Shown here: piece by piece, positions 857 to 14,200 of the stretch | Numbering within the stretch: the first letter of the stretch is position 1 | Layout of the letters: every line of letters begins with the position of its first letter | Assembly: GCA_038231275.1 (NCBI GenBank) | Contig: JBBRLQ010000003.1 | Span: 172,340 to 236,339 of the forward strand | Direction: 5' to 3' | DNA from: Polyangiales bacterium | GTDB lineage: Bacteria; Myxococcota_A; Polyangia; Polyangiales; Polyangiaceae | Length of the DNA stretch: 64,000 bases | The notes under the pieces: generated by a model | Databases searched by the model: none | The model's input: the letters and a program-made list of their open reading frames with translations, nothing else | What the model was told of the DNA's origin: nothing | Position numbers and translations under genes: made by a program

Positions 857-1210
857 TCAGGTCCGCATCGCGCGGCGATCGATCACGAGGAGCGCAAAGG
901 CGAAGGGCATCAGGAGAACGACGCCGAGCGACGTGACGTCGACGCGCGAGCCCTCGCTCCAGGCGTGCCAAGCGTCGGCGCCGTGGCTCACGAGCTGCTG
1001 GAGCACGAGCAGACCGAAGAGCGGAACGAAGGGCGGCGGCCGCGTCGCCATACCGAACGCGCACGCGAGGTTCAGCGCCACGAAGAGCGCGTGACGCCAC
1101 GGCGGTGACGACGGATCCATGTCGTGATCGAACGTCGCGACGAGGTGGTAGAGCGCCGCCGCACCGAAGATGGTTGCGAGTACCTTGAACGCGAAGCGTC
1201 GCCCCCTCAT
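857..1210 (-). CDS. small hydrophobic membrane protein (about 118 aa, roughly 3 predicted helices)
   Basis: ORF 857..1252, probable start at internal Met (MRGRRFAFKVLATIFGAAALY..). Its ATG overlaps the stop of the upstream ABC ATPase by 4 bp (ATGA coupling). Hydrophobic stretches; far too small for an ABC permease. Confidence 0.4.
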   Translation of the reverse strand: MRGRRFAFKVLATIFGAAALYHLVATFDHDMDPSSPPWRHALFVALNLACAFGMATRPPPFVPLFGLLVLQQLVSHGADAWHAWSEGSRVDVTSLGVVLLMPFAFALLVIDRRAMRT

Positions 1211-2658
1211 GCGGCCCCCGTCGCCTCGGCGAGGAGCGACGTCTCGGTCCATGCGCTCGTGGGCCGAGCTTCACCGAGCACGCCGCGGCGCATGACGGCG
1301 ATGCGATCGCACACGCCGAGGAGCTCGGGGAGGTGGCTCGAGACGACGAGGACCGCCTTGCCGCGCGCGGCGAGCGCGTCGATCAGCCGATAAATCTGGG
1401 CTTTGCTCGCGACGTCGATGCCGCGCGTCGGCTCGTCGAGGAGCCACACGTCGACGTCCTCGTGCAGCAGCCGCGCGAGGGCGACCTTCTGCTGGTTGCC
1501 GCCCGACAGCTCGAACGCCTTCGCGTCGGGGCCGGCGCACTTGATCGAGAGCTCCTTGATGCGCGTCTCCGCTGCGGAGCGCGTCCACGACGGCGTCACG
1601 ACGAAGCCGGGCAAGCGCGAGAGCGTCACGTTCTCGCCGATCGATCGCGCGAGGAGGATGCCCTCGCCCTTGCGATCCTCGCTCACGAGGCCCATCGAGC
1701 CGTGGGCCTTCACCGAACCACGTCGCACCGAATCGAGCCCGAAGATCGCGCGCAAGAGCTCCGTCCTCCCGGCGCCGACGAGGCCCGCCACGCCGAGCAC
1801 CTCGCCGCGACGCAAGGTCAAGCTCGCGCGCTCGGGTTTGATCGCGCCGGCCACGTCGCTCACCTCGAGCGCGACCTCGCCGGGCGTCGTCGTCGTCCGC
1901 GCGAAGAGCTGCTCGATCGCGCGCCCCGCCATTTTCTCGACCAGATCGTGCGCGCTCGTCCCCTCGATGTCGCCGCTGGCAACGGTGACGCCGTCACGCA
2001 TGACCGTCCAGCGGTTGGCCACCCGCGGCAGCTCTTCCAAAAAATGCGTCACGTAGAGGACGGTCGTCCCTGCTTCGGCGATGCGCTTCACGAGATCGAA
2101 CAGGCGCGTCGCGTCGTCCGCGGCGAGGCTGCTCGTTGGCTCATCGAGGATGAGGACACGGCACCCTTCGGCTCCTACGAGCGCGCGCGCGATCTCCACG
2201 AGCTGGCGATCGCCGCTCTTCAGGTCGGCCACCTTGTCGGTCGCCGTGAACCGCCCCTTGGCGCCGCCGAGGACCTTCGCGAGGGCGGCGTCGACCTTCG
2301 CGCGACCTTCCGCGCGGAGGAGCACGCCGCCGGTCGTGGTGGGCTCGACGCCGAGGAGGATGTTCTCTTCGACCGTGAGGTGCGCGCACAGGCTCAGCTC
2401 CTGGTAGACGACGCTCACACCCAGGTCGCGCGCCTCACGCGGCGAGCGCGGCGCGAACGGCGCGCCGTCGAGCCTGATTTCCCCGGCATCCGGAGCTTCG
2501 GCGCCGCCCAGCAGCTTCATGAGCGTGCTCTTCCCCGCGCCGTTCTCGCCGAGGACCGCGTGCACCTCTCCTGCGGCCACCGAGAGATCGACGCCCCCTA
2601 GCGCGCGCGTCGCGCCGAACGCCTTGGTGACGCCGCGGATCTCGAGCCGCGAAGTCAC
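1207..2658 (-). CDS. sugar-type ABC transporter ATP-binding protein with two fused NBDs (RbsA/MglA/XylG-like)
   Basis: Walker A GENGAGKST in NBD1; ABC signature-like LSGGNQQKVALARLL plus Walker B DVWLLDEPT in NBD2; a second signature-like DLKSGDRQLVEIARAL plus Walker B ILILDEPT in NBD1. 483 aa. 4-bp overlap with the upstream SBP gene. Confidence 0.85.
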   Translation of the reverse strand: MTSRLEIRGVTKAFGATRALGGVDLSVAAGEVHAVLGENGAGKSTLMKLLGGAEAPDAGEIRLDGAPFAPRSPREARDLGVSVVYQELSLCAHLTVEENILLGVEPTTTGGVLLRAEGRAKVDAALAKVLGGAKGRFTATDKVADLKSGDRQLVEIARALVGAEGCRVLILDEPTSSLAADDATRLFDLVKRIAEAGTTVLYVTHFLEELPRVANRWTVMRDGVTVASGDIEGTSAHDLVEKMAGRAIEQLFARTTTTPGEVALEVSDVAGAIKPERASLTLRRGEVLGVAGLVGAGRTELLRAIFGLDSVRRGSVKAHGSMGLVSEDRKGEGILLARSIGENVTLSRLPGFVVTPSWTRSAAETRIKELSIKCAGPDAKAFELSGGNQQKVALARLLHEDVDVWLLDEPTRGIDVASKAQIYRLIDALAARGKAVLVVSSHLPELLGVCDRIAVMRRGVLGEARPTSAWTETSLLAEATGAA

Positions 2659-3674
2659 TCGCCGAGCCAGGTCTTGAGATCGGGCGAGAGCAGCGCCTTC
2701 ATCTCCGCGCTCTCCATGTTGTCTTTCGTGACGAGCTTCGCGCCGGTGTCGACGCGCTTCTCGACCTTGTCGCCGCGGATGACGGCGGCCATCGTCTTGG
2801 TCGCGAGGTAGCCGATCTTGAACGGGTCCTGCAGGACGAGCCCGTCGATGTCCCCTTCCTTGAGCCCCTGCACGAGCTTCTCGGAGCTGTCGAAGCCGAC
2901 GAGGTGCACCTTCTTCGCGCGGCCCGTCTTGCGGAGCGCGAGGAGCATCCCGAAGGTCGTCGACTCGTTCGGCGTGAAGACGCCTTGCACGCCTTTTTGC
3001 GCGGACAGGAGGCTCTCGCTCGTCGAAAACGCCGTCTCGGTGGTGGCGCCGCCGTAGCGTGTGTCGCTCACGACCTTCACGTTCGGGTGCGCCTTCATCG
3101 CGTCGAGGAAGCCGTTTTCTCGATTGGTCGTGCTCGCCGAGCCCTCTTGGTAGCGGAGCATGAGGACGTCGCCCTTGTCGCCGACCGCTTTCGCGAGCGC
3201 CTCGCCGGCCATCTTTCCGGCCGCGAAGTTGTCGGTCGCGACGAAGCTCGTGTGCGCGTCGCCCTGGAGGTCCGAGTCGAACACGACCACCGGGATCTTC
3301 GATTCGGCGGCGGCCTTCACCGAGCCGACGAGGCCCTTGTCGCTGAGGGGCGCGAGCACGATGCCGTTCACCTTCTGCGCGGTGAAGCTCTGCACGACGT
3401 CGATCTGCGCCTTGAGATCGTCCTCTTTGAGCGGCCCCTTCCAGATGATCTCGACGTTCTCTTCCTTGCTCGCCTTCACCGCGCCGGCGTGCACGCTCTT
3501 CCAGAACTCGTGCGTCGTTCCCTTGGGGATGACCGCGATTTTGGGCATCGCCTTTGCGAAGGTCGCGGCGCCGCCGTCGCTAACTTCCTGGATGGCCGAC
3601 TTGTCTTTCGGACACGCGGTGAGGGCGGCGAGGGCGAGCGGCAGCGCGATGGCGGCGAGGAGGGACGAGCGCAT
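2655..3674 (-). CDS. periplasmic sugar-binding lipoprotein (PBP type I, RbsB-like substrate-binding protein)
   Basis: Signal peptide plus lipobox (LALAALTACPKD). Periplasmic-binding-protein fold motifs (KIAVIPKGTTHEFWKSVHAGA.., ..VATDNFAAGKMAGEAL..). Translationally coupled to the ABC ATPase. Confidence 0.85.
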   Translation of the reverse strand: MRSSLLAAIALPLALAALTACPKDKSAIQEVSDGGAATFAKAMPKIAVIPKGTTHEFWKSVHAGAVKASKEENVEIIWKGPLKEDDLKAQIDVVQSFTAQKVNGIVLAPLSDKGLVGSVKAAAESKIPVVVFDSDLQGDAHTSFVATDNFAAGKMAGEALAKAVGDKGDVLMLRYQEGSASTTNRENGFLDAMKAHPNVKVVSDTRYGGATTETAFSTSESLLSAQKGVQGVFTPNESTTFGMLLALRKTGRAKKVHLVGFDSSEKLVQGLKEGDIDGLVLQDPFKIGYLATKTMAAVIRGDKVEKRVDTGAKLVTKDNMESAEMKALLSPDLKTWLGE

Positions 3675-4050
3675 GTCTCGTTTGTATCGCGCATTTGGTC
3701 TACTGGGTCATCCCGTGACCGCCGACAAGACCTCCGAGCCGTCGCCCGCGCGGTCGAGGAGGACCTCCCGCACCAGCGGGACCTCCGGAACGAGCGGAGC
3801 CTCCGGCACCAGCGGGACCTCCGGAACGAGCGGAGCCTCCGGAACGAGCGGAACCACCGACGCTGGGGCCGGCGACAGCGGTTCGCCGACGGGCTTCTGC
3901 GACGTGAGCACGGCCATCCAACAAGAGCTCTACACGTTCGAGTACGCGAGCCTGACGAACCCTGTGCCATGCGTAAACAACGGAGCGTGCGCGGCGACGC
4001 AGTGTTGCTACCAGGCGGCGGCGGCACAGACCGCGTGCGTAGCGAAGTGA
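3672..4050 (+). CDS. small (TSG)n-repeat protein with Cys-rich C-terminus carrying a CCY..AAA motif; tentative
   Basis: ORF with GC-biased third positions. C-terminus (CVNNGACAATQCCYQAAAAQTAC) resembles the CCYRGDAAAT motif of the two Cys-rich paralogs at 15609..16746. No recognisable signal peptide from ATG 3672. Lies in the promoter gap of the SBP operon. Confidence 0.3.
3770..3855. repeat. tandem repeat (about 36-bp unit x2 plus partial) encoding (TSG)/(ASG) triplets
   Basis: caccagcgggacctccggaacgagcggagcctccgg repeated directly. Confidence 0.6.
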
Positions 4051-4069
4051 AGCGCCTCCACGCGCCGCT

Positions 4070-5722
4070 CTAGGTTCGCTTGATCGACGGCGGCGGGTAC
4101 TCCGGGGCTTCCGACATGATCTGCCGGTAAGCGAGCTGGTCGTCGTGCATGCGGAGCATGACGCGGTACTTCTGCTCGTAGTAGCTCGCCGCGTCGGGGT
4201 CGGGGCGTACCGTGCGGCCCGCGCGCGCCATCGCGCCCATCGCCGACAGGACGTCCTTGCGATCGCCGGACGCGACCGCACCGAGCATCGCCGCGCCGAG
4301 GAGCACCGCCTCCTGCTCTTCGGGGACGATGATGCGGCACCCCGTCGCGTCGGCGTGCGCCCGCAAGAAAATCGGGTTCTTCGCGTCGCCGCCGCACGCG
4401 ATGAGTGTCGTCGGCGCGTAGCCCTGCGCGCGCATCGCCTCGAGGATGTGGCGCGTGCCGAGCGCGATTCCTTGGATGGTTGCAAGATACACCAATGCTA
4501 GCGCGTCGTCGGTGTCCGACAGCTTGAGGCCGCTCACCATGCCGCGCAGCGTGGCGTCGGCGCGTGGCGAGCGGTTGCCGTGATGATCGGCCAGGACGTG
4601 CAGATCCTTGGTCAGCCCGAAGATCGGGCGACTCTTGGCGAGCGCGTCGAGGCGCTCCTTGAGGAGCGCGTACACGGTCGTCTCCTCGCGTTTCGCTTGC
4701 TCCACCAACGCCGCGCCGCGCGCGCTCGAATGAACGACCTGGTCGATGAGCGCGCCGGTCGCCGATTGCCCGCCCTCGGTGAGCCACAGGTCCGGCACCA
4801 TCGCCGAGAAGTACGGGCCCCACACGCCGGGGATCCACTTCGGCTCGCGCGAGACGGCCATGTGGCACGTCGAGGTCCCGCCGATGAGCGCGATGCGCGT
4901 CTCGAGCTCCGCGGCGTCGGGCGCGCCGATGCCGAGCATGCCAAGGCCGCCCGCGTGCGCGTCGATGATGGAGACGCCGACGGGAATCCCCGCGACGAGA
5001 CCCAGCTCCTTCGCCGCCGCCTCGGTGAGCGTCCCTTGCTTCTCGCCCATCGGCCGCACCGTCGCGCCGATCTTCGCCCAGCCGTCTTCCGCGAGCTCGC
5101 CGAGGCCGATCGACTCGAAGTACGCCGTGTCCCACCGCGCTTCTTTGCCGAGGTAGGTCCACTTGCACACCGTGGTGCAGAGCGAGCGCACGTCCACGCC
5201 CGTCGCGCGATACGCGAGAAAATCCGGCAAATCGAAGAATTTGCCCGCGCGCGCCCACGCCTCGGGGAGCTTCTCTTTCAGCCACGCGAGCTTCGGCGTC
5301 TCCATCTCGGGCGAGATGACGCCGCCGACGTACCGCAGGACGTCGTGCTTTCCGGCGTTGATGCGATCGGCCTGCGCCTGCGCGCGGTGGTCCATCCACA
5401 CGATCACGTTCTGCTCGTCGCTGCCGCTCGGGCTGACGGTGACCGGGCGATCGTCCTTGCCCAGCGCGACGAGGGAGCACGTCGCGTCGAAGCCAATGCC
5501 GCGCACCTCTTGGGGCTTCGCGCGCGCCTGGGCGAGGGCGTCTTTCACCGCGGCGGCGCACGCGGTCCAGATGTCGTCGCTCGACTGCTCGACGAAATCC
5601 TCCTGCAGTTTCCACGTGCGGATCGGGCACACGCCCATTCCGTGCATCTTCCCCGTTTCGTCGAAGAGTCCTGCGCGTGCGCTTCCGGTGCCGACGTCGA
5701 TGCCGAGATAAAGCTTGGTCAC
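4070..5722 (-). CDS. FGGY-family carbohydrate kinase (ribulokinase/pentulose kinase-like)
   Basis: 550 aa. N-terminal [16 protein letters not shown] actin-fold ATPase motif and FGGY C-terminal region (..[24 protein letters not shown]..). Confidence 0.85.
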
Positions 5723-5818: not shown

Positions 5819-6280
5819 ATGCGTACCCTCCTTTCGCTCTCTCTCGGGGCCTTGCTTCTCGTCGCGTCCGCGGGCGCGTGCTCATCGTCGTCGTCGTCCC
5901 CGGCGGCGCAGTGCAACACGAACCCGTACTCGTGCGCGGCAGGCACGACGTGCTGGCCCACCGATCAGAAGGCCGACTTCGCGTGCATCGCGAGCGGCGC
6001 TGGCCAAAAGGGAGACTCGTGCCTCAACACGCCGAACGCGGCGACGTGCGGGGACGGCATGCTCTGCTTGCAGCAGACGCAGACCGACGGCCACTGCGTG
6101 CCGTACTGCGACAGCACACACGGGTGCCCGACCGGGCAAGCGTGCACGCCGGCGCAGCTGATCGGGACGAGCCAAATCGCGCACGTCTGCTTCGGCGCCG
6201 GCGGCGGCACCACCGACGCGGGCTCGGGCGGCGACGCCGGGAGCGATACGGGTACGGCGAGCGACGCGGCCTCCGAGTAA
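5819..6280 (+). CDS. small secreted cysteine-rich lipoprotein (153 aa)
   Basis: Signal peptide plus lipobox (MRTLLSLSLGALLLVASAGAC); about 16 Cys in a patterned mature region; Gly/Ser/Asp-rich tail. Same strand as, and 206 bp upstream of, the giant lipoprotein gene. Confidence 0.5.
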   Translation: MRTLLSLSLGALLLVASAGACSSSSSSPAAQCNTNPYSCAAGTTCWPTDQKADFACIASGAGQKGDSCLNTPNAATCGDGMLCLQQTQTDGHCVPYCDSTHGCPTGQACTPAQLIGTSQIAHVCFGAGGGTTDAGSGGDAGSDTGTASDAASE

Positions 6281-6450: not shown

Positions 6451-6463
6451 CACGGTGACCGTG
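6451..6463. promoter_or_regulatory. 13-bp palindrome CACGGT-G-ACCGTG 24 bp upstream of the 6487 ATG, preceded by GGTGACGG / CGTCACGG repeats
   Basis: Read directly from sequence; candidate operator. Confidence 0.3.
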
Positions 6464-6486
6464 CATCTCCCGCTCCGTGGGCTACG

Positions 6487-9400
6487 GTGCCTCGCTCAAT
6501 GCATCGTCTTCTTCCGCTTGGACTCGTCCCCGCGTTCGTCGTCTCCTTCTTCTTCCTCGTCGCCGCTTGCAGCGGCAACGGCTCGAGCGGAGGGACCGTC
6601 GATGTCCCCGACGGAGGCGACGCCGGAGTCCCGCCCGACGGCGACGTCGACGCGTGCACTGGCGCCTGTCCGGGAGACGACGGCGGAACGAAGCCGCCCG
6701 AGGTCACATGCAAGATCTTGGCGCCGCTCGCCGCGGGCACGTGCGCGGTCACCGCGGGCAGCGCCGCGAAGTTGATCGTCGGCACGATCCTCACTTCGGC
6801 GCAGATCTTCCGCGGCGGCGCGGTGCTCGTCGACGACAAGGGAAGCATCGCGTGCGTCGGCTGCGACTGCGAGGCGAAGGCGCAAGGCGCGACGACGATC
6901 ACGTGCCCCGACGGCGTCGTCTCGGCGGCGCTCCTCAACACGCACGACCACATCACCTTCTCGCAGAACAACCCGTACACCGACACCGGCGAGCGCTACG
7001 AGCACCGCCACGACTGGCGCTCCGGCAAGAACGGACACAAGAAGCTCACGACGCCGGGCGGCGCGTCCGCCGATCAGGTCCGTTGGGCGGAGATCCGCTT
7101 CCTCATGAGCGGCGCGACGTCGACGGTCGGCTCCGGCAGCGTGGCCGGCCTCCTCCGCAACCTCGACAAATCGGCCGACGAGCTCGGGCTGAACCAGAAG
7201 CCCGTCGACTTCGAGACGTTCCCGCTCGGCGACTCGAACTCCACCCAGCTCGCCACCGGCTGCGCGTATCCGTCGATCCGCACGCCCGCGTCGATCGCAG
7301 GAGACGACGCGTTCTTGCCGCACGTCGCCGAGGGCATCAACGCCTTCGCGACGAACGAGTTCACGTGCCTCAGCACGACGACGGGCGGCGCGCAGGATCT
7401 CGTCCAGCCGAAGACGGCGATGATCCACTCCATCGGCCTCACCGCCGCCGACTACGCGGACATCGGTCAGAAGGGCGGCTCGATCATCTGGTCGCCGCGC
7501 TCCAACATCACGCTCTACGGCGACACCGCGGTCGTCACCGAAGCGGCGCGCCTCGGCGTTCGCATCGCGCTCGGCACCGACTGGATCGCCACCGGCTCGA
7601 TGAACATCGCGCGCGAGATCCGCTGCGCCGACGATTTCAACAAGACGTTCCTCGGCGGGTTCTTCTCCGACGTCGACCTGTGGAAGATGGTTACGGTCGA
7701 CGCGGCGCATGCGACGGCGACCGACGACGTGATCGGCGATCTCGCGGTCGGCAAGGTCGGCGACGTCTCGATCTTCGCAGGGAAGACGCACAAAGATCAT
7801 CGCGCGATCCTCGACGCCGCGCCGGCGGATGTCGTGCTCGTCATGCGCGCCGGTAAGGTGCTCTATGGCGACGACGATGTGGTCGTAGGCGCGGCGCCGG
7901 CCGCAGTGTGCGACGCGCTCGATGTGTGCGGCACGCCCAAGAAGATGTGCGTGCAGGACGAGTTCGGGAAGAACCTCGCGGCGGTGAAGGCGGCGGCGGG
8001 AGCCGCGATTTACCCGGCGTTCTTCTGCGGCACGCCGACGAACGAGCCTTCGTGCACGCCCAAGCGACCCACCTCGGTGTCCGGCTCCACCGTGTACACG
8101 GGCGTTCCTTCGGCGACCGACGCCGACGGCGACGGCCTCGCGGACGCCGCCGACAACTGCCCGAAGATCTTCAACCCGATCCGCCCGATGGACAGCGGAA
8201 AACAAGCCGATTTCGACGGCGACGGCACCGGCGACGCGTGCGACGTGTGCCCGCTCGACGCGAACTCGACGACCTGCAAGAAGTTCAACGGCAACGACAC
8301 CGACGGCGACGGCGTCGACAACGCGGCCGACAACTGCCCCACGGTGGCCAACGCCGATCAGGCCGACAAGGACGCGGACGGCAAGGGCGACGCGTGCGAC
8401 GCGTGCCCGGCCATCGCGAACCCCGGCGCGCTGGCGTGCCCCGCCACGATCTACGACATCAAGAAGGGGACCGTCGCGACGGGGACGTCGGTGTCGATCG
8501 CCAACACGATCGTCACCGGCAAGGCTGCGAGCGGCTTCTTCGTTCAAGCGAAGACGGGTGATCCCGGGTACGCAGGCACCGATTACTCCGGCATCTTCGT
8601 GTTCCAGAGCGCGAGCGCCGCGCAGGTAGGTGATCGCGTCACGATCACGAGCGCGACGGTGGCGACGTTCAACGGACAGATCGAGCTGACCGCGCCGGCG
8701 GTGACCGTGGTGACCTCCGCGAGCGAGGCGCCGCCCGACCCGGTGGTGGTGACCGCCGCCGACGTCGTGACGGCCGGACCGAAGGCGACCGCGCTCGAGG
8801 GCGTCGTCGTCCAGGTGAACGGCGCGACGGTGACCGACGTGGCGCCGCCGCCTGGTTCGGGCGACACCGCGCCGACGAACGAGTTCGTGCTCGATGCAGG
8901 CGTGCGCGTGAACGACTTCCTGTTCCTCGCGGCGCCGTTCCCCACCACGGGGACGCTATTTTCTTCGGTCGCCGGCGTCCTCGAGCTCAGAAACGGCAAT
9001 TCCAAGATCGAGCCGCGGAGCGCCGCGGATCTCGTCCTCGGCCCCGCGCAGCTGAGCGCGTTCAACGAGGCGTCGACGTTTGCGCGCGTCGGGCAGACCG
9101 GCGCGCCCACGTTGCCGACGCCGCTCACCGTCTCCCTCACGTCGGCGCCGACCGTCGACATGTTCGTCGCGATCGTGCCAAGCGACGCCGCGAGCCTCAC
9201 CATCGTCGGCGGTGGCGCGACGGTCACCGCCGGCCAGACGAGCGCGACGGTGCTCGTGAACGGCCTCGTGCAAGCGGCGTCGGTAACGTTGACGGCGACG
9301 CTCGGCGCGCAGACGCGGACCGCCACGGTGCGTGTCGTCGGCGCCGCGGAGGTGCCTTCGCTCACGTCGCTGACGCCGCCGAGCCTCGTCGTCGCGCCGG

Positions 9401-10188
9401 GCGGGACCACGACGTTCACCGTCGGTCTCGACCTGCCGGCGCCGGTCGGCGGGGTCACGATCGCCCTCTCCCTCGCGCCCGCGAACGCGGGGACGATCCC
9501 CGCGTCTGTGACGGTGGCCACCGATCAGACGAGCGCCACGTTCTCCTACGCCGACGCGAGCACGGTCACGAGCGCGACGGTAACCGCGACGCTCGGCGCG
9601 GCGACGTTGAACGCGACGATCACGCTGCAAGCGGCGGCGGGTGGCCTCGTCATCAACGAGGTCGACTACGACAACGTCGGCACGGACACCGCCGAGTTCG
9701 TGGAGATCTACAACGCGTCGTCCGCGCCGATCGATCTCACTGGATTTTCGCTGCTGCTCGTCAACGGCGCGAACAACGCGGTCTACCGCACCGTCGACCT
9801 CGGCCCCGCGGGGACGCTCGCCGCCGGTCAGTTCCTCGTCGTCGGCGCCACGAGCGTCGTCGCGGCGAGCGGCGCGCTCAAGATCGATCTCGGCGCCCTC
9901 ACCGACATCGTCCAGAACGGCGCGCCGGACGGCGTGGCCCTCGTCGATACGTCCACGAACAAGCTGGTCGATGCGCTGTCGTACGAAGGCTCCATCATCG
10001 CGGCGGTCATTCCGGGCGTCGGAACGGTGAGCCTCGTCGAAGGCACCGCGCTCGCCGCGACCGTCGCCGACTCGAACACGACGGCCGGCTCGCTCTGTCG
10101 CCTGCCGAACGGCGCGGACACCAACGACGCAAACACCGACTGGAAGCTCTCGTCGGCGGCGACGCCGGGCGCGGCGAACGTCAACTGA
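6487..10188 (+). CDS. large multidomain lipoprotein: metal-dependent amidohydrolase domain + thrombospondin type-3 (Ca-binding) repeats + Ig-like/low-complexity region + C-terminal lamin-tail domain (LTD)
   Basis: Signal peptide plus lipobox ([10 protein letters not shown]). Amidohydrolase HxH motif ([10 protein letters not shown]). TSP3 repeats ([20 protein letters not shown].., [38 protein letters not shown]). LTD-like C-terminus ([45 protein letters not shown]). Confidence 0.8.
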
Positions 10189-10209: not shown

Positions 10210-11763
10210 TCAGCCGAGGATGCGCACCTTGAAGCCGAGCTCCTGCGAGAGCGCGATCATTTCGCCGTAGACGTCTCCGTACGCGACGGCGACGTGGTTC
10301 GAGAGGTAGTGCGCCATGAGCGTCTCTTGCGAGATCCCCATGTCGGCGGCCATGAACGGCCATTCGCGCGTCGTGCCCTCCCACCACTGATCGCGGACGG
10401 CGGGGGGGAGTTTGACGACCTCGCCTTTGCCGACGTCCATCCAGAGCTCGCCCTTTTTGATGTAGGCGCGGGCCCAGGTCATGTTGCCGGGGAGGCTCTC
10501 GCCGGCGAGCGTGCCACCGGGCGTGGGGAAGTAGAGCGACGGTTGCCGGTAGGAGTGCGCGCCCTTCAAGGTCGACGGATCGTGGTTGAACGCGTAGGGG
10601 CCGCACGAGCCGCTGTTCAGGAGGACCCAGAGGAACCGTCCGTCGTGTTTGGCGCCCCAGCGGACGTCGTGGAACATGACGGCCTGGTGGAGCCCCTTCC
10701 TCTTGAGGAGGCGCTTCATCATCTCCATCGGCATCGCGTTGCCCTGATCGGCCTCGGTCGCCGTCGCGACCGTGTCGCCGTTCGACTCGGGGCGGCATGT
10801 GCCGTTGAGCAAGCCCTCGGCCAGATCGCTCGGCGGGCGGAGCGGGATGAGGCCGAGCTGGTATTGCCAGCCGAGGCAGTCGGCCTTGTATTCTGCAAGC
10901 AGGTCTATGACGACCAGGTAGTCACGGAGCTGTTCCTTCGTCGCCGCCTGATCGAAGTCGGCGTTGCCGTTCTCGCCCCAGTGAAATTGGAGGCCCGCCT
11001 TCACGCAGAATTCGAACGCGTCCTGGATGCGCTTGTCGGCGATGCGCTTGCCGCGGTCGATGATCCACGCCTGATCGATCTTGTGCTCGGTGAAGCCGTG
11101 CTTGTTGAGCAGGCGCGGCCCGAAGTACCCGTTGATCATCCCCATCGACGTGTCGCCGAGCATCATGAGGAGGACGCGGCGCTTCTTGATCTCGCCGGCG
11201 ACAGCGGCGGCGTGGGCGACGGCGCTCTCGGAGACGGGCGCGCTGTACCGCACCTGTTCTTCGCCGTAGCGAATCTGTCCGGAGGTGCACCACTCGTCGA
11301 GGCGCGCCATGAAGGTCGCGTCGGTCGTCCAGTCGGCGGCCTCGGTCCACGCGCGAGAGAACGGGCGATCGAGGCTCTCGAGGCACGCGCCGGTGTTGAG
11401 GAGGCCGACGAGGCCCGGCCAGCGTCCGCTGAAGTTGCTCGCGAGGAGCAGCGGGTTGTCCTTTCCGACGACGCCGTCGGTCGTGTGCGGGCCGTAGAAC
11501 CAGTGCACGCACACGCCGATCATCGGATCGTCGATGGGGCCGAGTTTGTCGATTGCCTCGTGGGGCTTCGAGAGGAAGCCGTCGACCTGGTACGGCTCGC
11601 GACCGAGCTTCTTCAGCGCGCGGACCAGCTGGCCTGTCGCTTCGATCATGTTCGGCGTCGCGAGCTCGTTGGGCTTGGCGCGCGCGTCCCCGGGCCAGAA
11701 AACGGCGATCTTCTTTGCCATGATGCGGGAGATGGTAAGCGCGAAGTCGGCCGGCGTCAGCAC
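10210..11763 (-). CDS. L-arabinose/L-fucose isomerase family protein (AraA/FucI-like)
   Basis: 517 aa. Family-like motifs (MLGDTSMGM similar to FGDNMR; C-terminal ..LMAHYLSNHVAVAYGDVYGEMIALSQELGFKV). Last gene of the minus-strand array. Confidence 0.6.
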   Translation of the reverse strand: MLTPADFALTISRIMAKKIAVFWPGDARAKPNELATPNMIEATGQLVRALKKLGREPYQVDGFLSKPHEAIDKLGPIDDPMIGVCVHWFYGPHTTDGVVGKDNPLLLASNFSGRWPGLVGLLNTGACLESLDRPFSRAWTEAADWTTDATFMARLDEWCTSGQIRYGEEQVRYSAPVSESAVAHAAAVAGEIKKRRVLLMMLGDTSMGMINGYFGPRLLNKHGFTEHKIDQAWIIDRGKRIADKRIQDAFEFCVKAGLQFHWGENGNADFDQAATKEQLRDYLVVIDLLAEYKADCLGWQYQLGLIPLRPPSDLAEGLLNGTCRPESNGDTVATATEADQGNAMPMEMMKRLLKRKGLHQAVMFHDVRWGAKHDGRFLWVLLNSGSCGPYAFNHDPSTLKGAHSYRQPSLYFPTPGGTLAGESLPGNMTWARAYIKKGELWMDVGKGEVVKLPPAVRDQWWEGTTREWPFMAADMGISQETLMAHYLSNHVAVAYGDVYGEMIALSQELGFKVRILG

Positions 11764-11778: not shown

Positions 11779-13278
11779 TCAACCGTCTGTCTTGTAGGGG
11801 TTTGGACGCGGCTCGGGGGTCGTGGCCGGCGGCGGCGTCGGGGGCGCGACGGGCGGCGGCGTGGTCGCGGCGGATGGCGGCAGCGGCGGCGGCGTGCCGC
11901 GAGGGGGACGCGTTCGCGGGGGACCCGACGCGTGTGCCGGCGTGCTCGCGCTCGGCTCGGCCGCCGTGGCGGTGGTCGGGGGCACGGCCGCCCCACCGGA
12001 GCTCGCAGGTTCGGCGGCGCTGGCGGCGAGCGGCGGCGGCGCGACGGGCGCCGCGAGCGGCGTGGACGGGACGTCGGTGGTCGCGGGAGCCTCGCGTCTC
12101 TTCATTCGCGGAACGACGACGGCCGCCGCACCGCCCGCGACCACGAGCGCCGCCACGACGGCGATCGCGCCACGCCTGGACCGCGGCGGCGCTTGCCTCG
12201 GCGCGACCTGCTGCGCGGTGACGGGAGCGCCGGTCTTGGACGACGCCTCTTGCGCGTACACGAGCGTGGGCTTCGCGGCGGCCATTCGCGCCGACGGCGA
12301 CGGCGCGGCGAGCGTGGGCATCTCCCCGATCGCCTTTCCGTCGCGAGGCGTGAGGCCCGCCCTGCGCGCGTCGAGCGACTCGCCGAACGAAGACCGCACG
12401 AGCTGCGCCACCTCCCCGTGCGCCGCGAGCCCCACCGGCCGCGCCGCCGCGTAGAGCGCGTCGGCGAGCGCCTCCATCGTGGGGAAGCGATCGTCCGGCG
12501 ACTTGGCGAGCGCGCGCGCGACGATCGCGTCGAACGCGGTGCCGAGCGCCACGCGCTCCGACGAGACGGGCGGCGGCACGTAATAGAGGAGGCGCATGAG
12601 CGCTTCGGCCTCGTTTGCCGCCGCGAAGAGCTGCTTGCTCGCGAGCCCCTCCCAGAGCACGACGCCGAGCGCGAAGACGTCGGCGCGGCGGTCCACGCCC
12701 TTGCCTTGCAGGTACTCGGGCGCCATGTACCCGAGCTTCCCCTTCAGCATGTCGCCGGTGGATGCCATGCCGGTGTGCGCGACGCATTTGGCGATGCCGA
12801 AGTCGCTGACGCGCGAGACCCCGTCGACGCCGACGAGCACGTTCTGAGGAGAGACGTCGCGGTGCACGAGGCCGAGAGGGCGACCTTCGCGATCCTTCGC
12901 CTCGTGAGCGGCGTGCAGACCGCTCGCTGCGTCGAGCACGACGCGCAAGAAAATCGCCGGCGTGGGGCCCGCGTCGCCGACGGCGAGGAGCTCGGCGAGC
13001 GAGACGCCGTCGATGTACTCCATGACCATCGTGACGGACGCGCCGTCGAGCTCGACGTCCCGAACGGCGACCACGTTGGCATGGCGGATGAGCGCCGAGA
13101 CGTACGCTTCTTTGACGAACATGTCGCGGAACGACTTCTGCTCGAGCAAATGCGGATGCGGCCTCTTCAGCGCCACGAGCTGCTCGAAGCCGAGCGCGCC
13201 GCGGACGCGACCCACGTAGACCTGCGCCATCCCTCCCGACGCCAGCTTGCCGACGATCTCGTAGCGGGTCGCGGTCAC
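11779..13278 (-). CDS. Ser/Thr protein kinase (Hanks-type) with Pro/Ala-rich C-terminal tail and a single TM-like segment
   Basis: Kinase subdomains: GxGxxG (GKLASGGMAQVYVG), VALK, HRDVSPQNVL, DFG (SDFGIAK), APE (MAPEY). Probable GTG start at 13276..13278. Confidence 0.85.
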   Translation of the reverse strand: MTATRYEIVGKLASGGMAQVYVGRVRGALGFEQLVALKRPHPHLLEQKSFRDMFVKEAYVSALIRHANVVAVRDVELDGASVTMVMEYIDGVSLAELLAVGDAGPTPAIFLRVVLDAASGLHAAHEAKDREGRPLGLVHRDVSPQNVLVGVDGVSRVSDFGIAKCVAHTGMASTGDMLKGKLGYMAPEYLQGKGVDRRADVFALGVVLWEGLASKQLFAAANEAEALMRLLYYVPPPVSSERVALGTAFDAIVARALAKSPDDRFPTMEALADALYAAARPVGLAAHGEVAQLVRSSFGESLDARRAGLTPRDGKAIGEMPTLAAPSPSARMAAAKPTLVYAQEASSKTGAPVTAQQVAPRQAPPRSRRGAIAVVAALVVAGGAAAVVVPRMKRREAPATTDVPSTPLAAPVAPPPLAASAAEPASSGGAAVPPTTATAAEPSASTPAHASGPPRTRPPRGTPPPLPPSAATTPPPVAPPTPPPATTPEPRPNPYKTDG

Positions 13279-13291
13279 GGGGAGGCGCGCC

Positions 13292-14200
13292 TCACAAGGA
13301 TCCCCGTAGGCCGGCCACGGCACCCCCCGTCGTCGGGGAGAGGACGAACGCGGTCTCACCGGTCTTCCAGCGAACCGCGAACAGCGCGAGCGCGCCGGTG
13401 ACCACGGCGGCGGCGGCGGTGACTCCGAGGAGCACGTTCGTGCGCACCACCGCCGCCCGTCCGTCGTCGACGAGCCCCGCGCACCCGGTGTGCGCGGCCT
13501 GATCGCACCGGTCGGTCACGAAGACGTCGTGCTGCCGGATGGCGTCGGTCCCCGACCAGATCGTGACGCCGCCAACGACCGCGGTCACGCCGAGGCCGAC
13601 CCACACCCACGCAGGCGACAGGCCCCCCTCGGGCGCGCGGGGCGGCGGAGGCTTTGCAGGCTCTGCGGTCGGCAATACGATCTCCTCGAGGGCGCCAGCG
13701 CGGAGCTCGATGGGCCGCTCGATCGCGCGCGCACCGTCGCGAACGACCACGAGGTGCTTGCCCGCCGTGATCCACGAGATCACGTTGGGCGCCACCGCGC
13801 CGCCATCGATCGTCGCGCTGCACGTGCCGCAGGCGACGCGGACGCGGCCCACGCGACCTCCGAACTTCGCGCGGAGCTTGGCCGCGAGATCAACGGCGGC
13901 GCCCTCTCCGTTACGCGCCGCCGCGCGGGCCGTGAGGGTCATGCCGAGCGCGGCGTCGTCGGCGTGCAGCGCCGCCTCGAGCGCGGAGAGGAGCGCGACG
14001 TCGTTGGGCGCGATCTCGTCGGCGCGCGCGAACTCCTGGGCCGCGGTCGCGAAGTCTCCTCGCCGTTGCGCCTCGGCGCCGCGGTCGTACGCGTCGCTCG
14101 CCGCGCGAGAGCGCGCGGTGTCCTCCGCGCGGGCACGTGGAACGGCCGTGAATGCGGCGACGGCAAGCAGCAGACTCACGCACCGCGCGGCTCGGAACAC
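13292..14200 (-). CDS. secreted TPR-like / PEGA-like protein with C-terminal transmembrane segment
   Basis: Signal peptide (LLLAVAAFTAVPRARAED); helical TPR-like N-terminus; PEGA-like stretch (VRVACGTCSATIDGGAVAPNVISWITAGKHLVVV); TM near C-terminus. 13 bp upstream of the kinase gene. Confidence 0.55.
   Translation of the reverse strand: MFRAARCVSLLLAVAAFTAVPRARAEDTARSRAASDAYDRGAEAQRRGDFATAAQEFARADEIAPNDVALLSALEAALHADDAALGMTLTARAAARNGEGAAVDLAAKLRAKFGGRVGRVRVACGTCSATIDGGAVAPNVISWITAGKHLVVVRDGARAIERPIELRAGALEEIVLPTAEPAKPPPPRAPEGGLSPAWVWVGLGVTAVVGGVTIWSGTDAIRQHDVFVTDRCDQAAHTGCAGLVDDGRAAVVRTNVLLGVTAAAAVVTGALALFAVRWKTGETAFVLSPTTGGAVAGLRGSL

Follow-up and report, generated by a model that had tools for sequence, protein, structure and literature searches.

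Introduction

To our knowledge, the characterised amidohydrolases of the deaminase clade (the cog0402 type) are soluble cytoplasmic enzymes of salvage or catabolism, about 400-480 amino acids (aa) long. Here we describe a Polyangiales gene encoding a catalytic head of this clade in a predicted exported lipoprotein that also carries thrombospondin type-3 (TSP3) repeats, an oligonucleotide/oligosaccharide-binding (OB) fold, immunoglobulin (Ig)-like domains, and a lamin tail domain (LTD). The gene lies at 6487..10188 (+) of a 64,000-nucleotide stretch (the window, positions 172,340 to 236,339 of contig JBBRLQ010000003.1, assembly GCA_038231275.1).

The accessory modules have been described in other surface and secreted proteins. 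Shewanella ExeM requires an OB-type region for its nuclease activity, which is enhanced by the LTD (PMC6085458), and LTD-plus-nuclease proteins are recurrent in DNA-degrading bacteria (PMC8289736). TSP3 repeats are present in the myxobacterial surface protein TraB (PMC6372800). The evidence presented below makes it likely that the Polyangiales protein is an active, exported hydrolase of the deaminase clade carried on a docking stalk. An initial annotation, made from the DNA sequence alone, had called it a cell-surface or matrix-anchored hydrolase, and this is still its best description.

A deaminase-clade catalytic head

The catalytic head (aa 71-530; 6697..8076, +) was delimited by Pfam, AlphaFold2 (AF2), Foldseek, and a profile search against the PDB. 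The AF2 model, built with 43 sequences, had a predicted local distance difference test score (pLDDT) of 87.9 and a predicted TM-score (pTM) of 0.89, and disorder was limited to its first 38 residues, which belong to the tether. It consists of an amidohydrolase (beta/alpha)8 barrel, a small beta-sandwich, and a C-terminal extension rich in Cys (aa 475-530). Pfam Amidohydro_1 (PF01979) matched aa 305-458 (E 6.8e-8; 32.6 bits, cut-off 25). The head carries the motifs PGLINT-H153-D-H155, H279-V-A-E282 (HxxE), H314, W335-S-P-R-S-N340, which aligns to the 'HCPESN' of 4dyk, and G-T-D365-W. In the model, H153/H155, H279, H314, and D365 sit at strand ends. Across alignments of 34, 43, and 120 sequences, each residue of the catalytic signature was either invariant or conserved to 90% or more, and H279-V-A-E282 was invariant in all 120 homologues of the largest. 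W366 is likewise invariant. The initial annotation had recognised an amidohydrolase from its HxH signature, which is indeed found at H153/H155, but had overlooked HxxE, by which the head can be assigned to the deaminase/dechlorinase clade.

Two readings of the active site were rejected. One was a pseudoenzyme, because the catalytic residues are invariant. The other was a binuclear centre with a carbamylated Lys, which is unlikely because the homologue alignments hold no invariant Lys between beta1 and beta5 (aa 156-278).

Structural comparison gave the same assignment as the motifs. The initial annotation had suggested structure prediction to find the amidohydrolase subfamily, and the predicted head is closest to the deaminase/dechlorinase clade. 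The top 37 Foldseek matches in the PDB were all amidohydrolases of this clade or close relatives (E 6.6e-20 to 7.3e-15; query-normalised TM-score 0.47-0.54; identity 13-19%), including the adenosine/methylthioadenosine (MTA) deaminases 4dzh, 4f0r, 4gbd, and 4dyk as well as AtzA, TrzN, the amidohydrolase AHS, isocytosine deaminase, and guanine deaminases. The best matches of the sequence profile were the Pseudomonas aeruginosa PA3170-type structures 4dyk/4gbd (E 1.7e-16). We also scored the head against the NCBIfam equivalogs for guanine, 8-oxoguanine, MTA/S-adenosylhomocysteine (SAH), 5'-deoxyadenosine, and aminofutalosine deaminases, chlorohydrolases, HutF, and HutI. The highest scores were those of TRZ/ATZ hydrolase (54.2, cut-off 540) and guanine deaminase (43.6, cut-off 375), the rest were lower, and no equivalog cut-off was reached, the scores being roughly tenfold short. 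We conclude that the head is, by motif and fold, an amidohydrolase of the deaminase-type clade (cog0402 / TRZ-ATZ / guanine deaminase-like).

In the cog0402-type clade, the segment between beta1 and beta5 bears the specificity loops. In the window protein this segment (aa 156-278) aligned with no solved enzyme and holds the family-specific invariant residues E169, R170, Y171, E172, R174, W177, R178, H184, R204, R224, N225, D227, and D249. With the specificity segment family-specific and unalignable, the class of chemistry can be inferred from the head but not the substrate.

This segment could also give a new specificity, and it therefore bears on another reading, in which the protein is an exported peptidase, amidase, deacylase, or polysaccharide/peptidoglycan deacetylase acting on polymers of prey or matrix, after the model of the Lys/Arg carboxypeptidase Cc2672, the prolidase-like Sgx enzymes, or ochratoxinase. 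Several such amidohydrolase enzymes bear signal peptides, and predatory and cellulolytic myxobacteria secrete many polymer hydrolases. The invariant R170, R174, R178, R204, and R224 would suit a carboxylate or phosphate, and Foldseek also matched Cc2672 (3mtw, E 1.7e-14) and the Xaa-Pro dipeptidase 2qs8. However, these matches ranked below the approximately 37 of the cog0402 type with lower TM-scores (0.39-0.43), and sequence profiles reached the peptidase group only marginally (E 0.004). The deaminase-type HxxE is invariant, and the Lys needed for a carbamylated binuclear centre is missing from the conserved positions. We regard an exported peptidase or deacetylase as unlikely.

Export signal and tether

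The N-terminus (aa 1-28; 6487..6570, +) reads as a type II (lipoprotein) signal peptide, with a basic n-region, a hydrophobic h-region, and the lipobox LVAA-C28 expected of a signal peptidase II substrate. The lipobox Cys28 is kept in 109 of the 120 aligned homologues. By these sequence signals the protein is an exported lipoprotein, as the initial annotation had plausibly suggested. The signal peptide is followed by a flexible, acidic tether rich in Gly, Asp, and Pro (aa 29-70; 6571..6696, +), for which AF2 gave a pLDDT below 50 (model residues 1-38). This tether is 42 aa long, against a family mean of 106 aa for the linker, and the Cys-rich DUF4215 repeat found in most homologues is not present in the window protein. 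No MYXO-CTERM tag was found at the other end, where the LTD ('...TPGAANVN') closes the protein and no hydrophobic tag follows. The head contains 16 Cys and the TSP3 region (aa 558-651) a further eight; most are invariant, which fits a disulfide-stabilised extracytoplasmic enzyme.

A modular stalk

The stalk (aa 540-1233) was modelled by AF2 with a pLDDT of 88.9 and a pTM of 0.51, values that suggest confidently predicted domains in a loose arrangement. Its first module (aa 540-650; 8104..8436, +) is a set of TSP3 calcium-binding repeats, matched by Pfam TSP_3 in four stretches (E 7.5e-15; 54.8 bits, cut-off 25) and by the family profile against the type-3 repeats of COMP (3fby) and thrombospondin-2 (1yo8; E 1e-28 to 1e-29). 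The two TSP3 repeats with paired Cys noted in the initial annotation correspond to two complete long repeats, which hold the eight Cys and four Asp-rich calcium-binding motifs (aa 544-558, 575-588, 603-618, and 625-640). The C-terminal TSP domain is absent from the protein.

The last module (aa 1048-1233; 9628..10188 with the stop codon, +) comprises the LTD and a conserved C-terminal extension, the LTD itself being matched by Pfam at aa 1049-1167 (E 5.5e-16; 59.3 bits, cut-off 34.3). The domain search thus bore out all three domain calls of the initial annotation (amidohydrolase, TSP3, and LTD), each above its curated Pfam cut-off.

Four domains lie between these modules. The initial annotation had described a Thr/Ala/Val-rich Ig-like region, and two Ig-like beta-sandwich domains are indeed predicted (aa ~853-957 and 958-1047; 9043..9627, +), but it had overlooked an OB-fold module lying between these and the TSP3 repeats. 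Two domains precede the Ig-like pair. The first is this OB-fold five-stranded beta-barrel (aa ~655-748; 8449..8730, +). The second is a beta-rich domain recognised from AF2 secondary structure (aa ~749-852; 8731..9042, +), which has no family assignment and no Pfam match even at E<=10. The NCBIfam model of the extracellular endonucleases ExeM/NucH matched aa 676-784 over its first 112 positions (E 8.4e-10), with a score of 38 against a cut-off of 300 and with only positions 5-116 of the 546-position model aligned. The first part of the second beta-rich domain lies within this match. The OB fold is therefore related, at the sequence level, to the accessory region of ExeM/NucH nucleases.

When the OB/beta and Ig segments were searched alone against Pfam, NCBIfam, and PDB sequences, nothing besides the ExeM/NucH match was found, and Foldseek of the stalk against the PDB gave generic tandem-Ig matches only. 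No plasmid matched the OB region by tblastn, and Pfam at E<=1 detected no EEP nuclease domain in the protein. The net charge of all stalk domains is acidic throughout the family (OB -2.6, LTD -15).

Such a stalk could also mean that the protein is chiefly an adhesin or matrix protein comparable to MtsC and TraB, in which cohesion between cells, or between cell and matrix, depends on calcium and on the TSP3, Ig-like, and LTD modules, and the head is a binding module or a minor enzyme. The non-catalytic part makes up more than half of the protein, and the stalk resembles the beads-on-a-string proteins of the S-layer, intimin, and invasin kinds. TSP3 repeats also occur in TraB (PMC6372800), and those of the window protein matched the model of the cohesion protein MtsC with an E of 8e-18. 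This match was confined to the TSP3 part and reached only 64.5 bits (cut-off 350), and the protein has no MYXO-CTERM tag. Moreover, all six catalytic/metal residues are conserved family-wide and the head is the best-conserved part, whereas pseudoenzymes normally lose such residues. A primarily adhesive role thus seems quite improbable to us, and we retain the reading of an active hydrolase on a docking stalk.

A large family in Polyangia

A search of 5.8 billion proteins retrieved more than 120 full-length homologues with 52-79% identity, 94-100% coverage, and an identical Pfam set. In the databases they are named only 'lamin tail domain-containing protein' or 'DUF4215 domain-containing protein'. 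When each GTDB species was scanned through a single genome, at least 568 confirmed matching stretches were found; this figure is an upper bound on the genes sampled, because two peptide patterns were used. Among the best 80 of these stretches, all named hosts were Polyangia or Myxococcota, namely Sorangium, Byssovorax, Polyangiaceae, Kofleriaceae, Haliangiales, and Sandaracinaceae. The catalytic domain alone gave 733 clusters (50% identity) at E<=1e-30. We conclude that several hundred Polyangia genomes carry the family.

Length variants have extra N-terminal DUF4215 repeats, fn3 arrays, or a PQQ-like propeller, and all retain the Amidohydro-TSP3-...-LTD core. Conservation is even over the entire length of the aligned homologues, and the family is under purifying selection over its full length across a bacterial class. 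The architecture is the canonical form of a very large family found throughout the class Polyangia and not a one-off. We found no paper that connects LTD with an amidohydrolase in bacteria, no description of the family in the literature on this combination, on the Sorangium secretome, or on TSP3 in myxobacteria, and no experimental characterisation of any member. The combination that the initial annotation called unusual is so relative to the literature, but in nature it is standard across Polyangia.

The open reading frame (ORF) starts with GTG and encodes 1233 aa (ORF list of the window). An in-frame ATG at 6499 is an alternative start giving 1229 aa, and a database protein (P0001, 1229 aa) that is 100% identical begins there. 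The GC content of the window is about 70%, and two further long ORFs overlap the gene, one antisense (6496..8547, -; 683 aa) and one in another frame (6477..7856, +; 459 aa). We take both as spurious, because their translations are rich in Arg, Ala, and Gly, as is typical of DNA with 70% GC.

The antisense frame illustrates that spurious long ORFs do arise in the local high-GC DNA, and the gene itself might in principle be such an ORF or, as the initial annotation had considered, a fusion of separate genes made by assembly or annotation. This is refuted by the homologues, of which more than 120 are full-length with identical domain order, some of them on the finished 11-15 Mb chromosomes of Sorangium and Chondromyces. 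The even conservation and the confident AF2 models of both halves point the same way, and we consider an artefact next to impossible. The ORF at 6487..10188 is a real gene for a large exported lipoprotein.

Inside the coding sequence (8936..8955, +), a hairpin and the T-rich run after it resemble a terminator. The resemblance is probably due to chance, since three such sites occur in the region against a shuffled expectation of 2.4 +/- 1.6.

Genomic context

The nearest gene upstream (5819..6280, +) encodes a predicted lipoprotein of 153 aa (lipobox ...SAGA-C); its mature part is rich in Cys, and it has an acidic tail of Gly, Asp, and Ser. Further upstream, on the opposite strand, are genes for an ABC ATPase (1207..2658, -), a periplasmic sugar-binding protein (2655..3674, -), and an FGGY carbohydrate kinase (4070..5722, -). 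Downstream are genes for a fucose-isomerase-like protein (10210..11763, -) and a Ser/Thr protein kinase whose long C-terminal tail is rich in Pro and Ala (11779..13359, -). Both plus-strand lipoprotein genes appear to lie inside or beside a sugar catabolic cluster formed by the opposite-strand genes at 1207..5722 and 10210..11763. There is no paralogue of the gene within the window.

We searched 83 homologous loci by tblastn with the window neighbours (the lipoprotein, FGGY kinase, fucose-isomerase-like protein, and Ser/Thr kinase) and with the neighbours of the Sorangium homologues and of P0004. The search showed synteny at the genus level only, and a conserved operon partner was rejected. 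The 153-aa lipoprotein had no Pfam or NCBIfam match and was missing from all 83 loci. The sugar-utilisation genes that flank the gene in the window were likewise found beside it in none of these loci. The initial annotation was correct that this Cys-rich lipoprotein gene precedes the large one, but it is not its partner; as it stands beside the LTD gene in none of the 83 loci, it probably encodes an unrelated, lineage-specific small exported protein. In about 10 of the 83 loci, scattered weak matches (28-36% identity) to the Ser/Thr kinase lay no more than a few kb from the orthologue; these are probably generic myxobacterial paralogues and not a conserved partner.

Local synteny was common to Sorangium and Chondromyces only and was absent from the window. 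The upstream gene conserved between these two genera encodes a 430-450-aa protein with no Pfam match (44% identity between genera), and the small lipoprotein of the window is unrelated to the Chondromyces upstream gene. In every finished Sorangium genome and in Chondromyces crocatus, the orthologue was observed about 70-105 kb from chromosome coordinate 1 (complete-genome loci L002, L003, L013, L016, L017, L020, L021, L023, L024, and L027). With no conserved neighbours across the 83 loci, the gene is probably a stand-alone, monocistronic unit.

The initial annotation had proposed an operator at the palindrome CACGGT-G-ACCGTG (6451..6463). The palindrome exists, but it is one of 172 perfect inverted repeats in the window with 6-bp arms and spacers of 0-3 nt, and the motif was not found upstream of any homologue. 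An operator role was rejected on grounds of this chance frequency and lack of conservation. No sigma-70-like promoter was detected, and terminator-like matches were at background level.

Proposed function

In the arrangement we propose, the N-terminal lipid would anchor the protein, most likely in the outer membrane. The short tether would hold the head close to the membrane, and the C-terminal stalk would reach outward. The head is predicted to be an active, disulfide-stabilised amidohydrolase with a mononuclear metal. H153, H155, H279, and D365 would bind one Zn or Fe ion and so yield an activated water, with E282 of HxxE and H314 relaying protons. An amino group, a halide, or a similar leaving group would then be displaced hydrolytically from an amidine-like or heteroaromatic carbon, with release of ammonia in the case of an amino group. 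The stalk may form a rigid string of beads made up of calcium-loaded TSP3 repeats, the OB and beta domains, two Ig-like spacers, and the distal LTD, and it would dock the enzyme on an extracellular polymer, presumably matrix or extracellular nucleic acid. Small amino-heterocycles would be processed by the head at the cell surface for nitrogen scavenging or detoxification. If they are purine bases or nucleosides, these would come from surface turnover of extracellular nucleic acid.

Our leading guess for the substrate, a purine base or nucleoside, has two grounds: adenosine/MTA and guanine deaminases are the closest enzymes of solved structure, and the accessory modules are common to extracellular nucleases. 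Assignment of the substrate class to nucleobases or nucleosides is only tentative. Taken as a whole, the statement that the protein is a surface-tethered deaminase acting on an extracellular amino-heterocycle, with a purine base or nucleoside as leading guess and the stalk for docking, seems to us about equally likely to hold or to fail.

Several points weigh against this proposal. Identity to characterised enzymes is 14-19%, the sequence alignment is confined to the C-terminal half of the barrel, and the family-specific region of aa 156-278 does not allow the substrate to be read from homology. NCBIfam equivalog scores are all far short of their cut-offs (for example, 54 against 540). OB and LTD folds bind sugars or proteins too, and the cog0402 enzymes known to us are cytoplasmic. 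The acidic stalk disfavours simple electrostatic binding of DNA, unless Ca2+ or Mg2+ bridges the two. Finally, the 83 loci showed no conserved nuclease, transporter, or purine-catabolism neighbours that would back a link to nucleic acid.

A bolder variant is that the amidohydrolase-fold head deaminates bases within a polymer or nascent oligonucleotides at the surface, while the OB, beta, and LTD domains engage the nucleic acid. We consider this variant highly improbable. The polynucleotide deaminases known to us (APOBEC, ADAR, TadA, and DddA) use the cytidine-deaminase fold, and the variant, if true, would mean a polynucleotide deaminase unrelated to that fold, conserved across a class of social, predatory bacteria.

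Nothing in the evidence so far demands new biology. If the surface-tethered deaminase is real, the scavenging of nitrogen or nucleobases, the inactivation of toxins or antibiotics, or matrix biology would include an extracellular step that has so far gone unrecognised. The family occurs in hundreds of species of Polyangia, organisms relevant to natural products and to soil carbon turnover. With an intact active site, confident models, and culturable hosts it is tractable for enzymology, and it could give a functional handle on the LTD and TSP3 modules of bacteria.

Comparison with known systems

We compared the head with cog0402-type enzymes, namely the MTA/adenosine deaminase PA3170 (4dyk/4gbd), Tm0936, guanine deaminase, the isocytosine deaminase Vcz, AtzA, and TrzN. 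Both have the (beta/alpha)8 barrel with a small beta-sandwich, and they have in common PGLINTHxH, HxxE after beta5, the His of beta6, xPxSN of beta7, and GTD of beta8. Unlike these enzymes, the window protein is predicted from its signal to be exported and lipidated, is rich in Cys, and is fused to a stalk of about 700 aa.

With the ExeM/NucH nucleases (Shewanella ExeM and Aeromonas NucH) it shares export, association with calcium, a multidomain build, and an LTD with an OB-type accessory region, and its LTD weakly matched that of ExeM. The amidohydrolase, however, replaces the EEP domain, and the LTD is C-terminal here but N-terminal in ExeM. The calcium-binding, disulfide-paired repeats (DxDxDGxxDxxDNCP...GDACDxCP) are the same as in thrombospondin/COMP, MtsC, and TraB, although the window protein has two long repeats only and lacks the lectin-like C-terminal TSP domain, the OmpA domain, and MYXO-CTERM. 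Compared with the database orthologues (Sorangium spp., Chondromyces crocatus and Chondromyces apiculatus, and metagenome-assembled genomes of Polyangia), its architecture is the same, with a shorter tether that lacks DUF4215.

The protein belongs to no characterised equivalog, nor to ExeM/NucH, MtsC, or the thrombospondins. As a sequence family it is already in databases under generic names, for which we found no functional description; what is new here is the exported, lipid-anchored TSP3-OB-Ig-LTD architecture predicted around a head of the deaminase clade.

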